Source: a virus (Duplodnaviria > Heunggongvirae > Uroviricota > Caudoviricetes). Taken from it: DNA of 61,412 nucleotides. Below, piece by piece: positions 11,901 to 17,900 of the stretch (positions are counted from its first letter, which is position 1; every line of letters begins with the position of its first letter). The DNA lies in the IMG/VR virus record IMGVR_UViG_2563366956_000010. One strand, 5' to 3'. The position numbers were made by a program.

Positions 11901-14900
11901 ATATCAATATGTTGGGCCATTATACATTCACGTTGCCAGAGGATATTTTAAAAGGGGAACTGAGAGCTCTAAATTTAAATATAAACAACGAATTATCTCC
12001 TTAACGTACGTTTTCGTTCCATTGGCCCTCAAACCCCGATCTTTACGAGGTTGACGTAATAGTCATGGGGTAAGTTTGTCATGGTGATAGTTCCCTTAAA
12101 GGTTAAGGATACTCACCACCGTCTGGTTCCAATCATTGGGTGGTGAGACGTACAGGGTTGGAACTACCGGTCACCATGGAATCCGGCGAGTCTTACGACT
12201 CCCCCGCACGCCCCACCATAATTTGGGTGTAGCAGTGCTTTACGCATAAAAAAACCGCTAACGCGGTATGCGCCATGATGATTATCGGGGTTCCAATCCC
12301 GACCGTAGATTTTGCTACGGCTCGGAAAGTGTCCACCAATGGCGCATTCATGTCAATACGGCGGGATTTTAACAGAGACAACCACATAGCGTGGGTTTAT
12401 TGGTAGGCAGAAACAAAAAAACCGCCCTATTGAGGACGGTTCTTTCGTGCTGATCGGATTCGCGGTCCTTTCAGCATAACGTCGTTGTATAAACAACCAC
12501 GCAAGCACAAGCAGCAAGTTAATTTTACCCAAAAGGTAATAATAGTCCACTATTATGCTTCAAAAAATTGTGGTTCTTGTTGTGCCTGCAAACTCACAGA
12601 TTGTGGGTAGGTTACTGATTTTGTGAAAATAAACGAGTTTTTTCGTTTAATTTCTTTCCTATTACTAATCTTAAAATAATCGTAAAATACCTGTGGACCT
12701 TCCCGCCGATTCGCACCCGGGCACCGACTTTAGGGGAGGATTCTCCGTTGCCGTACATGCAAGCACAAGCAGCCGTGCTTGCTCTCGCGTTGTTTTCGTC
12801 GGTGGGGATGCCGTGAAACGGCCTGTAAGGGCCATACAATGAAAAAATACTGTATGTGTATTTTTATCGTTGTTACTGGGGCTTTGTTTACGCCACATGG
12901 GGAGGGTTGGAAGATTACTGATAACGCTCTGAATGTGACGATAAACATTAGCAGCAAGTAGCGATTAGGCCCCTTCGGGGGCCTTTTTTATGGTTGAATT
13001 TAAACGCTGGAGCGCATTAAGCCTTTCAGAACTGCTTCACGTACCCATTCTGGCCTGGTGGATAGCAGGGCAAATAAGCGACCAGCTTTCAGCCGTTTGA
13101 GGTCGGTTAGACGAGTTTTCAGTAACCGTGTATATTGTTGCTCGGACATAACAAATTCCCCTTGTTGTGTCGCGACGGCCAACAGTTGGCGCTGGAGGCC
13201 GTCACCTTCTCTTACTTCTGGTTGTATTGAGCCTTGAGTAACTCAAAAGATTTTGTCAGCACTTCTTTCAATGACATATCCATTGAGCTGGCGAACGTTT
13301 TGTACTCGCGTTTAAATTCAGGGTCGACGTTAAACGCCATTTGTGCCCCACCTGATTTGGTTCTGGTTGGCGTTTCAGTCGGGTCGAAAACCTGCGGTTG
13401 TTCGATCGATGGCGGTACGCCTTTGCTGTTCTTCTTTGGTGGTTTTGATGGTCCGGCCATGTGTATCCCCTCTTATATAAATCTATAAAACTATAATTAT
13501 ATATTACGCGGCAGTAGTCAGAGCCTCAAGCTGGTTGATAATCCCCTGAATAACGTCGTCTGCCTTTTTGCGTGGCGCAACGTATGAGCATTCAATGAGG
13601 CTTAAGCCCTTATCCTGAGCTTTGCTCAGAGCTGGCTTGTGGGGAATGTACTTATCGACAACAAAGTATGGCGTATTAGCTAGGTACTCTTGGGCTTCAA
13701 TGTAGTCGGCTTCGTTTTCAGCCGCGCCTGAGAACACCATGCAAATTTTCTTGATTGGCACACCCTTTTTAACGATGCCGTGAGCTGTGTTAACGGTGGT
13801 TTCTAGGTCATCGGTAGAGAATCTGGTTGGCAAAATAACCATATCCAGAAATTCAGAGAGCTTCGGTACTGATTCAGATGCGTAGGCACCGCCATCGACG
13901 ATAACCAGGTCGTATACTTCTGATTCGATGATTTTCTGGACTTGTGATGGCGTGCCGCACGGCTGCGCCGCGATTGCAGGTTCGATATTGTTGGCCATTC
14001 TGCGTTGTACCCAACGCGTTACCGTTCCGTTAAGCACATCCATATCGATCAGGCATACATTCCAGCCGGCCTTTGCATAAGCAACTGCTAAAGCACGGGC
14101 AATTGTTGATTTGGTTACGCCGCCTTTTCCGTTGAAAATACCTACAGAGATAGTCATTTGTCGAGACTCCATGTGTTTGGTTATATAATTCTATAAATCT
14201 ATATTTATAGAACGAGGTAAGCATAACCAACTTTTTGGCGGATGAAAAGCGTTTTATATAATTATATAAATCTATAATCATGTAAGCGGGCGTTAGCCCG
14301 CTTTCAGTCAGAGGTCAGCTATCGTTGATATCAGTTGATTTGCTAGCTGTCGCTGTTTACGTGAGAGGGTGAGAGCAGCTTCTGAGCGGTCGCTAAGAGG
14401 GGTGTTTTCATCAAGAATCATGAGGCATACAGAAATAATAGCCCTGTTATATGCCATCAATGGCTGGCACAGCTTCGATATCGCTGGCACATCGTATTGT
14501 AAGGCCGTTTTGAGGCAGACTTTTTGTTCTGATGCCAGATGAAGGATAGATTCTATCCAGTCGATATCTTTCTCATTATCAATGATTTGGCATAACATAC
14601 ACTCAATCGCTATGTTCAACGCTTGGATTTCGATTCCAGCAGTGATCAGAGTTTCGTTTTTATTGGCTGTATGTAATTCCATGCGTAGCCTCTTTTATAC
14701 TTTTACATGTTGTCAAAACCACAAAATGTGGTTTTTTTGAGCGTAGAAATGCACGGCTTTCGCCGTGCTGTGTATCATAACCAGTTGACAACACTAACTA
14801 CGCGGCCAAGAACTTTATAACGCTTAAATTCCTCGTTATTCAGATGCTTAGTGTTCATTTCAGCATCCCTTTCGGTTGACAGCATAACAGCATTGTCACC

Positions 14901-17900
14901 CGGTATGACTCTACAGTGCCTCAAAACAACCAGGCCATTTCTGTCTTCAAGGGCATAGATCCCCTCATGAATCTCTGTATCGTCTGTATTAATCAGGACT
15001 TGGGAGCCTGGGGATATTGTTGGTGACATTAACTCATCGTTGCTCTGGAGAACTGACAGAGACGATGGGTTGATGTTCTTGCTTCGTAGAATCTCCTGTT
15101 CTATCGCCAGCACTGGCTTTTCTCCGGCGTGCGATGCTATGTCATTTTTTATAGCTACAAGCCCAGGAATAACAGGAGCGTTAGTATTCTGGGGTGGGAA
15201 CGGGTTATCTGTTAAGCACGCGATATAAGGCGCTGATGCTTTCAGGGCGTGCGCGATTTTCTTGATGGCAGGTATAGATGGTTGTCTTAATCCGGCCTCA
15301 TAGTTCTGCAAGGTGCTTAAGCCTATTCCAGTGACTTGCTGGAGATCTCCGGCAGTCATGCCGGATTGTTTCCGTAGAGTCTGAATGCGCAGACCTATTT
15401 CTTTCTTGATGTTCTCGTCGTTGCTTTTCATGTCTCATCAATCGTGAATGGTGGGTTATTTATACATTACCACATTTAGTGGTTTTCACATGGTAAGACG
15501 AGAGGTGGACCACAAATAGAAGGTTATTTTTTGTTTCGCCCATTGAAAAACTCACGATATGTGGTTTTAATACCACATATCGTGGTTTTAACTGGAGTTC
15601 GTTAAATGACCTTTCAGGAGTGGGTTGACGAAAATGGAGGCCAAATTGGTGTTGCCAGAAAGTTTGGCTTTACGTCATCACTGATTGGTGCCTGGTATCG
15701 CTTCGAGAGATTCCCTCGTGCGGATAACCTGACGCTGCTGGTGGCGTATTCGGAAGGCCGGATTAACGTCCAGCAATGGGCGGCAGATTTTGCCGAACGT
15801 CAGCGCCAGCGTAGCGATGGCACATCGGTTCGGCAGAACAAGATCAAAGGGAATCTCCCTGTTAACTGCTTATCAAGGCTGAAAGCGGTTTTCTCTGAGC
15901 TGGGGATGCCTGCGGAGCGTTGCAATCTACGCGGTCCGCGATTCATTGCTCGCTGGAAACACTCACATGTAACCGTTTCAGAGGTTCGTGATGCGATTAC
16001 CGTGCTGGAGCTTAAGAATAAAGATTCCAGCGATATCGAGCTGATTCATAAGGAGATTAGCAACGCCCGGCGTTCAGCACTTGGGAGGCTTGAGGAATGA
16101 TGATTCTGGCCTTCTTTGGTGATAATCACCAGATTCAATCGCAGGTGGTGCACTACCTTGATCAAACGATTAAAGGATTTGTTATCGATCATATTGATAA
16201 CGATAGCAAACGTCTATCTGTAGAGCAGAAAATTGGAGGTGTGCAGCGACTGGTTGCCAGCCGTAACAGACGTGACACCGTAACAGTCGTTACGGGGATT
16301 ACGGAGGTCATGGAGTACCAGATGTTGCTGCATCGTGGAGCTGTTTTCTGCGTTCTTCCTGGTATTCTGCCAGCAATTCTTGCTCGTGGTTTTGTCCCTA
16401 TTGATGAGTCGTTCTTATATGTAACCCCAAGCCGTTCCCTTCTGGATACGGAGGCGAAGCGTCGCATTTATATGATGCCGGACGAGGCATTTTCTGAATG
16501 TTACCGCCGTGAAATGAGGTTGGGTAAACGAGAAGTGTCTGTTGTTCGTGATGGCAGGTTTTTAAGAAGCCGCACGGTGAAAAGCACCAGAAATGACGGG
16601 GGCCATCAATGAGTAGTTATGTTCGCGGTGCTGCGATGCATTGCCAGAATCCCCAATTCTGGCGCTTTCTGGTCAGTAAAACAGGGAAGAACGTTTCAAA
16701 CAGTTCTGAGGCCTCTGTGATTCTGCGTGAGTTTTGCGGGATCTCATCCCGTAAAGAGCTGGCAAAGAACTACGCGGCCAGAAGCATGTATGTCCAGTTA
16801 ATCAACGAGTTCAACCTCTTTATCAATGGTAAGGGGCGCTGATGAACGGACGTACACCAACGAAGAAAGAGAAACTTTATATACAAGCGGTGCTCACTCA
16901 CGTGGGTTGCATAGCTTGCATTATTGATGGCCGTGAAATTGAGAATCCAGAGCTGTGGACGGAGCTACATCACGATCCTGATTACGGCAGCGTTGATGAG
17001 AATTGCCACTTCCATAGCTTTGGGTTGTGCGCACCACATCATCGCGGTGTTGTGCCTGGTGGTGGGCGTGTGCCTCCGCATATTGCCGTTCGTCACCCTC
17101 CCCTGAGTAATTGTGCTCGCTTTGTTGAGCGTTATGGCACAGATGAATTTTTGTGTGCGCAGACGTGGGAGCTGTTGCCGCAGTCAGTTAAAGACGAAAT
17201 TGGGTTTGATCTTAGTCTTGGTGAAGTACCAGGGGATACCAAATGAGATATACCGGCTTTCGCAAACCAGCGACAAGGAAAAGCAAATACGGCAATAAAA
17301 AAACGGTTGTCGATGATATCGCTTTTGATAGCAAAAAAGAGGCTGATTACTACTGCGAACTGAAGCTACTGAGAAAAGCTGGCCGCGTTGTGACGTTTCT
17401 TATGCAGGTGCCTTTTCATCTGCCAGGTGGTGTCGTTTATAAACTTGATTTCATGGTGTTTTATGACGATGGGACGATTGATTGTGTCGACACTAAAGGT
17501 GTGCGAACAGACGTCTACATCATGAAGAAAAAGCAGGTAGAGGCGCTTTATCCCGTCACGATACGGGAGATCTGAACAGTGAGACGCGATCTGGATAGCT
17601 TGTTTGAGCTATGGGCGCTGTGGGTGCGCAATGGCTGCAACGCCCGTAGCGGTTTCGCGTCGATGTTAGAAATGATGATGGTTACGCGCTGCCAGTTTAC
17701 CGGAGGGGGCGGCGCACCAAATGACTCACTGGAAACCAGTATAGAGGGAGCGGTGACGGCCCTCACGGTAGTTGATGAGACTGCGGCGCTGGTTGTCCGA
17801 ATTGAATACGGGGCGTGGGAGATTCGGGGCCTCGACATAAATGCACCGCATATTGATAAAGCCCACGCCCTTTCTCTTAGCCTCAGACAGTATCGCCGGA

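Follow-up and report, generated by a model that had tools for sequence, protein, structure and literature searches.

A CI-type repressor gene with conserved operator-like palindromes, and further sites at an immI-like operon and at repA, in an Escherichia coli phage-plasmid

Results

Organization of the cI region

The stretch of DNA analyzed here, IMG/VR record IMGVR_UViG_2563366956_000010 (61,412 nt, Caudoviricetes; below, the window), is a circular ~47-kb Escherichia coli phage-plasmid with two insertions. We examined its immunity region, in which a CI-type repressor gene (cI) faces a divergent cro-position gene and is followed on its own strand by orf124, the gene of a 124-aa protein. The ORF coordinates of an initial annotation, made from the sequence alone, stand, and the region comprises the following features (site scores are from the weight matrix described below).

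15606-16100, plus strand: cro-position gene, 164 aa, divergent from cI
15572-15586: OR1, ACCACATATCGTGGT, 30.1 bits, kept in all relatives
15551-15565: OR2, imperfect, TCACGATATGTGGT(T), 25.0 bits
15543-15571, plus strand: P_R-like promoter, TTGAAA, 17-nt spacer, TTTAAT, preceding the cro-like gene
15509-15516: lone half-site, TTTGTGGT on the minus strand, an invariant GTGGT block between OR2 and OR3
15469-15483: OR3, ACCACATTTAGTGGT, 25.8 bits, adjoining cI
14775-15431, minus strand: cI, encoding a repressor of 218 aa (HTH_3 domain at the N terminus, LexA/lambda-CI fold at the C terminus)
14751-14768, minus strand: intrinsic-terminator-like hairpin, GCACGGC-GAAA-GCCGTGC, a GC-rich 7-bp stem directly after the cI stop
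14715-14735, 15-mer core 14718-14732: O4 (OL-like), AAAACCACAAAATGTGGTTTT, 31.0 bits, the most symmetrical site
14308-14682, minus strand: orf124, encoding a soluble acidic four-helix-bundle protein of 124 aa, pI 4.8, found only in this phage-plasmid family
14286-14305, minus strand: hairpin, AAGCGGGC-TAAC-GCCCGCTT, at the end of the orf124 unit and before the parA control repeats

On the minus strand the order is thus cI, hairpin, palindrome, orf124, hairpin, AT-rich repeats, parA (13504-14172) and an 82-aa gene. For comparison we used about 10 diverged lineages from Citrobacter, Yokenella, Salmonella and several metagenome contigs, in which CI is 60 to 66% and Orf124 28 to 59% identical to the window proteins. 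The synteny cI-terminator-O4-orf124-parA is the same in all of them.

Four palindromes are conserved around cI

Exact copies of CCAC-N5-GTGG occur seven times in the window against an expectation of 0.57, and none of 100 shuffled sequences reached seven. The longer 15-mer ACCAC-N5-GTGGT is exact at 14718-14732, 15469-15483 and 15572-15586; the third intergenic site, at 15551-15565, is imperfect (cTCACgatatGTGGT, TCAC...GTGG). A 21-nt weight matrix trained on 24 orthologous sites gave the four cI-region sites 25.0 to 31.0 bits, and the maxima in 50 shuffled sequences averaged 10.8 bits, the highest being 20.0. Palindromes stand at the same four positions in about 10 diverged relatives, with invariant half-sites and a variable N5 spacer (consensus AAAACCAC-N5-GTGGTTTT), and the matrix recovers these positions in genomes that had no part in its training (L021, L024 and the Salmonella plasmid L026). 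When the whole plasmid of the Salmonella relative was scanned, the five top-scoring positions were O4, OR1/OR2, OR3 and a site termed O6, which is described below. The half-site centers lie 10 bp apart, a spacing that suits a dimeric helix-turn-helix (HTH) protein. The clustering put forward in the initial annotation, with three sites between cI and cro and one before the 124-aa open reading frame (ORF), is therefore confirmed by the shuffles, the matrix and the conservation. Two further exact matches, at 44795 and 50019, are probably due to chance, as they score 5.2 and 5.8 bits and lie within the long ORFs 44528-45529 and 48659-51505.

P_R is the only strong sigma-70-like promoter of the cI-cro intergenic region, with 9.4 bits by a sigma-70 matrix of our own construction against 8.2 bits for the 90th percentile of random 120-nt windows. 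OR2 lies within its 17-bp spacer, and OR1, at a center-to-center distance of 21 bp from OR2, starts right after the -10 hexamer and covers the predicted start site of the cro-like transcript; the same arrangement is found in the relatives. As read from the sequence, OR1 and OR2 over the putative P_R have the geometry of classical repression of the cro-side operon. An invariant TAAnnT at 15469-15464 on the minus strand (alignment columns T140, A141, A142 and T145), which is overlapped by OR3, may be the -10 element of the cI promoter; this candidate promoter is weak by matrix score (4.5 bits). The lone GTGGT half-site at 15509-15516 is accompanied by a conserved CTTC eight bases away, both invariant in eight relatives, and it does not form part of a full CI-type site.

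The 164-aa product of the cro-position gene consists of ~55 weakly Cro/YdaS-like N-terminal residues and a conserved C-terminal extension. Residues 1 to 53 weakly match phrog_35, "transcriptional repressor" (E 0.0023), PF15943 weakly matches two of nine family members (E 0.028), and no PDB match was found.

A terminator and an operator-like site lie between cI and orf124

In every relative, the cI stop is separated from O4 by a GC-rich hairpin and a T-tract, which reads TTTTTT in most of them. The arm changes seen in L021, L024 and L023 are G-U compatible, which fits the expectation for an RNA terminator. The initial annotation had compared orf124 with the rexAB genes of phage lambda, which share the cI transcript. 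This comparison is not supported, because the conserved hairpin and T-tract separate cI from both O4 and orf124; with a terminator between cI and the operator in every relative, orf124 appears to be set off from cI as N is behind PL/OL in lambda, unlike the cotranscribed rexAB.

The extra operator in front of the gene downstream of cI, also proposed at the outset, proved to be conserved. O4 is the top-scoring site in every genome with the canonical four-site layout (26.4 to 32.4 bits), the exception being L023. Its center lies 43 nt upstream of the orf124 ATG in the window. Of 10 lineages compared, 7 have this distance at 43 to 44 nt and two at 48 nt, and the most diverged has 35 nt; the intervening sequence is variable and the Shine-Dalgarno sequence GAGAGG is kept. 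A weak promoter candidate recurs here, with TTTAAA or TTAAAA as -35, O4 in the spacer, and TTTAGT, TACCGT or GACGAT as -10; this placing of O4, as at P_R and repA, is suggestive only. Read as RNA, O4 is AAAACCACA-UUU-UGUGGUUUU, a 9-bp hairpin followed by U residues, and the 94-nt region containing it folds better than all of 200 shuffles (z = -3.5). Such a hairpin would add to the insulation of orf124 from cI. At the other end of the orf124 unit, the GCGGGC...GCCCGC of the hairpin at 14286-14305 is kept in the relatives.

The most diverged relative, L023 (locus 4172-5000), encodes a 199-aa CI and an Orf124 of 28% identity. It keeps the order CI-terminator-palindrome-orf124 and has an extra AACCAC half-site upstream of orf124, 21 bp before the O4 palindrome.

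CI has a LexA-like fold with the catalytic positions replaced

The N-terminal part of CI matches HTH_3 (Pfam, 4.5e-11). Its match to the Peptidase_S24 family PF00717 reaches 18.4 bits (E 0.0018) and stays below the gathering cutoff of 23.3. PDB sequence and profile searches with CI returned the HTH domain only and no S24 chain, and no useful result came from comparing the CI family with single sequences of LexA and lambda CI by hhalign. In the predicted structure, the C-terminal domain is beta-rich and has the LexA/UmuD'/lambda CI fold, with fold matches to LexA (3k2z, 12.1), the lambda CI C-terminal domain (1kca, 11.8), UmuD' (11.3) and the phage 186 CI C-terminal domain (2fkd, 11.2).

The catalytic residues were compared in a MAFFT alignment of the CI family with LexA, lambda CI and UmuD. 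The position of the S24 serine nucleophile (G-x-S-M; S119 of LexA) is taken by Leu134, invariant in 10 CI family members, where D-E-L-M aligns with G-M-S-M, G-N-S-M and G-D-S-M (family motif DELM-S/A-PTI). At the position of the general-base lysine (K156 of LexA) stands the invariant Arg171 of the motif L-R-H-C-R, and at that of the Ala-Gly cleavage site the family has I-K, I-D or I-N. The window CI does have an A-G nearby, at residues 102 and 103, but other family members read S-G, -G or -D there. A search of the whole window yielded no acceptable LexA box: the sole exact CTGT-N8-ACAG sits in a coding region, and every CTG-N10-CAG candidate mismatches the consensus at no fewer than 8 of its 20 positions.

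With serine and lysine replaced, the Ala-Gly site absent and no LexA box found, RecA-driven self-cleavage is not predicted. Of the initial description of a LexA-like CI with an S24 domain and SOS-linked induction, the fold is retained, as is the CI-type repressor (HTH_3 plus LexA-fold C-terminal domain) that faces a divergent gene across three conserved sites; the self-cleavage is not, and the PF00717 match is subthreshold. The best-supported picture is that the LexA fold was kept for dimerization or oligomerization while the protease was lost.

Orf124 is a conserved helical-bundle protein

The AlphaFold model of Orf124 is an up-down four-helix bundle with a predicted local distance difference test (pLDDT) score of 91.6, and its most conserved residues include E27, C28, D41, E44, Y78, C86, E101 and Q110. 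Conservation at 28 to 59% identity together with this confident fold marks orf124 as a real gene; truncated alleles in natural plasmids indicate that it is dispensable for plasmid carriage. The protein belongs to a PHROG family of unknown function. Pfam and NCBIfam gave no match, a PDB profile search turned up no relative in sequence, and the structural matches are to designed or generic helical bundles only. No convincing transmembrane segment was found (the highest Kyte-Doolittle 19-residue window is 1.51 and contains charged residues), and PADLOC defense models gave none but a subthreshold match to NucC (E 0.022). Among 1.84 billion representative proteins, searched exhaustively by profile, 7 Orf124 representatives were found, and the three full-length ones whose contigs were examined all stand in the cI-O4-orf124 context; a scan of genome contigs found no relative, and viral contigs gave close relatives only. 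The suggestion that the 124-aa product is a superinfection-exclusion or defense protein is not supported, since nothing in these domain, defense-model, fold and membrane-segment searches points toward an exclusion role.

Further CI-type sites at an immI-like operon and at repA

Two more sites of the same type lie outside the cI region, in front of the following genes.

12378-12398: O5, upstream (minus strand) of the immI-like operon, 21.2 bits
12248-12321, minus strand: isrK-family RNA, Rfam 70.2 bits (gathering score 50)
12136-12223, minus strand: C4 antisense RNA, Rfam 84.3 bits (gathering score 45)
60030-61172, minus strand: antirepressor-like gene, 380 aa, ORF6N/Rha
54630-54650: O6, AAAACCACGTAACGTGGTTAT, 29.7 bits, at the putative repA promoter in the native backbone
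54816-55664, plus strand: repA, IncFII-type, Pfam PF02387 1.3e-43, 149.8 bits (cutoff 22.9), annotated repA in relatives

The order at the first locus is O5, isrK, C4 RNA, a 63-aa gene and the 380-aa ORF6N/Rha protein, which matches Pfam ORF6N (4.5e-21), Phage_pRha (1.5e-12) and the PHROG category "anti-repressor" (5e-67). In L002, L004 and L005, relatives from Citrobacter and Yokenella, the 63-aa gene is preceded at ~310 bp by the O5 orthologue, which was not used for training and scores 18.2 bits. With a C4-family RNA upstream of the antirepressor gene and a putative operator at the operon promoter, the locus reads as a P1-type immI module. The 63-aa gene occupies only the position of icd and belongs to phrog_7886 (unknown function). 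In the window it is split after ~15 codons, into remnants at 12038-12082 and 61169-61320, by a ~12-kb transposon, so that the antirepressor gene is cut off from the promoter region; the insertion may uncouple the antirepressor from its control region.

At the second locus, TATGAT (54648-54653) overlaps the right edge of O6. The site is kept in relatives, with 25.9 bits in Salmonella (L026/L032) and 23.3 bits in Yokenella (L033). The long repA ORF runs from 54684 and the family match begins at residue 53, making Met45 at 54816 the likely start. In the repA leader there is an inverted repeat of 15 bp (54731-45 and 54785-99). The opposite strand of the leader has a TTGCGT-16-TATAAT promoter (54805-54778) and a GC hairpin with a T-run (54697-54718), in which an A-T pair is changed to G-C by a compensatory change in Yokenella. 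These features would suit an antisense RNA of ~90 nt; a CopA-like one is predicted within 54695-54805 on the minus strand, with 54695-54772 as the RNA itself. No Rfam CopA match at the repA leader reached the gathering score, and no copB gene is annotated upstream of repA.

Two weak CI-type matches (11.0 and 7.5 bits) were also noted at 26955-26996, exactly 21 bp apart, at the start of a ParB/Srx-like gene (26950-27573), and the Salmonella plasmid L026 has a weak 8.6-bit match at the corresponding place (position 900). This pair may act as a tandem operator of low affinity, or it may merely reflect conservation of the coding sequence.

The phage-plasmid family and the insertions in the window

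Family members are circular, nonmobilizable phage-plasmids of ~47 to 49 kb. The region matches 58 PLSDB plasmids at 95 to 100% identity (57 from Escherichia and 1 from Klebsiella), as well as three myoviruses isolated on Yersinia pestis (vB_YpM_39, 41 and 44) at the same identity, in whose records every gene under the match is annotated "hypothetical protein". A literature search on the three Yersinia phages, the protein accessions and the phage-plasmid family found no paper. Both insertions were delimited by BLAST against the uninterrupted plasmid pMB9698_3 (L001).

61321-61412 and 1-12037: insertion 1, ~12-kb Tn3-family transposon, junctions with a 5-bp overlap
8996-12004: TnpA, in the ~12-kb transposon
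8281-8913: resolvase, in the ~12-kb transposon
52448-54010: insertion 2, 1.56-kb blaTEM remnant, between the tail-fibre/transferase region and repA
52595-53455: beta-lactamase, Pfam Beta-lactamase2 2e-41, in insertion 2
53638-53970: truncated resolvase, in insertion 2

The ~12-kb transposon appears to carry a microcin B17 operon at 453-5361, with genes for a YcaO protein, a nitroreductase-like protein, an ABC ATPase and a pentapeptide-repeat immunity-like protein, and it also encodes a 700-aa protein with a weak ORC/CDC6-like match. A weight-matrix match at 52472 lies inside the blaTEM insertion, off the phage-plasmid backbone; it is presumably part of the transposon terminal repeat.

Next to orf124, and separated from it by a hairpin, lies a partition module (13212-14285) with ParA (222 aa), an 82-aa protein and AT-rich direct and inverted repeats upstream of parA. 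The 82-aa protein has no Pfam or NCBIfam match; its C terminus looked ribbon-helix-helix-like to us by eye, and we take the module to be of type Ib, ParF/ParG-like. Three near-identical ~115-bp cassettes (18013-18129, 24962-25082 and 57822-57940) stand directly upstream of a DUF3560/primase-like gene (18072), a 107-aa ORF (25024) and a 126-aa ORF (57937). Each cassette opens with an AT-rich repeat, ATAGAATTATATAATTATAGATTTATATAA, which resembles in type those of the parA control region (14175-14285); then come TTTACA-17-TATGGT and a shared leader ending in GGAGA-ATG. These cassettes may form a second regulon, perhaps bound by the 82-aa protein, or be dispersed centromere-like sites. The phage-plasmid also has a tRNA gene (23996-24068, plus strand, Rfam tRNA 65.8 bits) and, between the immI-like region and the par genes, a full-length Rfam match to ryfA RNA (12693-12989, plus strand, 141.8 bits) with a strong terminator at its end (12969-12990).

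Discussion

A proposed regulatory scheme

According to the above-described analysis, the reading that we favor, at a rough probability of 55%, is that a noncleavable CI controls a dispersed regulon made up of cro, cI, orf124, the antirepressor operon and repA. A CI dimer probably binds the 15-bp ACCAC-N5-GTGGT palindromes with their A/T-rich flanks. At OR1 and OR2 it would cover the P_R spacer and start site and keep the cro-like operon off, and at OR3, over the likely cI -10 element, it would exert negative autoregulation. O4 would be the equivalent of OL/PL, with orf124 as a one-gene unit, insulated from cI, that is off or held down in the lysogen and expressed when CI is absent or inactivated; O4 may in addition serve as a loop anchor for OR, ~750 to 860 bp away. 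Through O5 and O6, CI would act as a master repressor with dispersed operators in the manner of P1 C1, and as it has neither the Ser/Lys dyad nor the Ala-Gly site, induction would proceed through an antirepressor that inactivates the CI protein. That CI is the binder, which sign regulation takes at O4, O5 and O6, that looping occurs and what part Orf124 plays are matters that we infer.

Several observations weigh against this scheme. As far as the sequence goes, the palindromes could be bound by the Cro-like protein instead of CI, or by both. In L023 the right operator is rearranged, with one full site and two half-sites. The structural model of CI is of moderate confidence (pLDDT 74), and in the alignment of catalytic residues the sequences of LexA, lambda CI and UmuD that served as reference were entered by hand. 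The T-tract of the cI terminator is weak in the window (ATTTCTA), and neither a consensus scan nor a matrix scan of ten lineages found a sigma-70 promoter above background between this terminator and orf124. Repression of a dedicated orf124 promoter is thus putative, and read-through from cI or dependence on an activator is possible. Finally, to see in Orf124 a CI-repressed early factor, a switch component or an anti-host protein is a guess from its position.

Alternative explanations for O4 and orf124

At O4, read-through with a CI roadblock, activation by CI and a mainly loop-anchoring role are all possible. The last of these would make O4 chiefly an auxiliary long-range operator, whose loop to OR tightens P_R repression and cI autoregulation, with the effect on orf124 secondary. 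It is compatible with the dispersed-regulon scheme, and we regard it as a real though rather unlikely possibility. That O4 is the strongest and most symmetrical site everywhere except in L023 accords with it, as does its near-constant distance of 751 to 759 bp (computed by hand) from OR3 across cI, and among the structures that match the C-terminal domain of CI are the octamer of the lambda CI domain (1kca) and the oligomer-forming domain of 186 CI (2fkd). However, CI oligomerization beyond the dimer is only putative, single CI-type sites at two other gene fronts (O5 and O6) make local control the simpler account, and the fixed spacing from O4 to the orf124 ATG across variable sequence argues for a local promoter-type function and against a pure loop anchor, because a loop anchor needs no such constraint.

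We hold it to be improbable that orf124 is a lysogen-expressed, rex-like exclusion or defense gene, cotranscribed with cI or activated by CI at O4, in a phage induced by SOS self-cleavage. The position of orf124 directly 3' of cI on the same strand does mirror lambda cI-rexAB, and with no convincing promoter of its own and an imperfect terminator T-tract in the window, read-through from the cI promoter is conceivable; if TATAAA (14699-14694) were the -10 element, the O4 center would come to about -38 by hand indexing, which is close to where a class II activator binds. Against this, TATAAA is present in the window lineage only, the T-tract is strong in most relatives and O4 forms a second hairpin with a U-tract, Orf124 resembles no defense, exclusion or membrane protein in the searches above and has truncated alleles in natural plasmids, and CI lacks the residues of self-cleavage. 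Less probable still is a role of the 14718 palindrome at the level of RNA, in which it would form a second intrinsic terminator behind cI, or a bidirectional one, and would not be an operator for a protein. Its 9-bp hairpin with U residues does stand directly behind the first terminator and folds well, but the same 15-bp motif with A/T flanks recurs at OR1, OR2, OR3 and O6, within promoter spacers and over start sites, which are senseless places for a terminator, and the half-sites of O4 are invariant without the G-U drift of the neighboring true terminator; both functions could coexist.

Going beyond the dispersed-regulon scheme, one may speculate, with considerable doubt on our part, that a catalytically dead LexA-fold CI is the single hub for lysogeny and plasmid biology, with CI at O6 replacing the CopB-type repressor of the IncFII repA promoter, O5 gating the antirepressor operon and O4 holding off Orf124. 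Falling CI would then allow more replication, serving copy-number homeostasis as well as lytic runaway, and Orf124 would be a switch component of a new kind, such as an inactivator of CI resembling Coi, in a double-negative feedback. CI doubling as the repA-promoter repressor of an IncFII-type replicon and Orf124 as a new switch protein are the most interesting of these possibilities.

One motif marks a lytic promoter, the repressor gene, an orphan early-position gene, an antirepressor operon and a plasmid replication gene, which gives a testable wiring diagram for an uncharacterized family that counts three isolated phages and, among sequenced plasmids of E. coli and Klebsiella, at least 58 members. 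To our knowledge, the coordination of plasmid and phage functions in phage-plasmids is largely unknown outside P1 and N15. Phage-plasmids are common carriers of resistance genes, and the window itself carries blaTEM and the microcin B17 transposon. The analysis also corrects a tempting misannotation, in that a LexA-fold domain without the catalytic dyad does not imply SOS inducibility.

Comparison with known systems

The lambda immunity region comprises cI, OR1 to OR3, cro, OL/PL and rexAB, in a cI-(rex)-OL/PL-N layout. The phage-plasmid shares with it the divergent genes at the cI and cro positions, the three palindromic operators between them (two over the rightward promoter and one adjoining cI), one more operator beyond cI, and a repressor built of an HTH domain and a LexA-fold C-terminal domain. 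It differs in having one distal operator instead of three, no rexAB and a terminator directly after cI, replaced catalytic Ser, Lys and Ala-Gly positions in CI, a structured four-helix bundle that is not N-like as the first leftward gene product, a weakly Cro-like "cro" product of 164 aa, and extra operators at the antirepressor operon and the plasmid replication gene. By this analogy, cI-terminator-O4-orf124 resembles the lambda layout minus the rex genes.

P1 has a tripartite immunity, with C1 acting at dispersed operators, the immI operon of c4 RNA, icd and ant, and Coi. Like P1, the phage-plasmid is a plasmid prophage with single operators scattered round the genome, one of them before an operon that opens with a C4-family antisense RNA and closes with an antirepressor, and its repressor is not expected to be cleaved by RecA. 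Unlike P1, its repressor is of the HTH_3/LexA-fold type and unrelated to C1, its operators are symmetric 15-mers where those of P1 are asymmetric 17-mers, and its replicon is IncFII-type and itself has a repressor site. P1, 186 and the Gifsy phages are all induced through an antirepressor, and the repressors of the coliphage 186 CI, Gifsy and SPC32H types are inactivated by antirepressors under LexA control; in contrast, no LexA box was found in the window, and the antirepressor operon carries a CI-type site and C4/isrK RNAs.

In IncFII plasmids (R1/R100), CopB represses the repA promoter, and CopA is an antisense RNA. The phage-plasmid has the PF02387 RepA, the leader inverted repeat, and the opposite-strand promoter and GC hairpin with T-run in common with them, whereas a CI-type operator occupies the promoter-proximal repressor-site position, no copB is annotated and no Rfam CopA match exceeds the gathering score. 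Taken by analogy with these systems, the best-supported picture would be a phage-plasmid immunity system that combines a lambda-style cI/cro core with P1-like dispersed operators.

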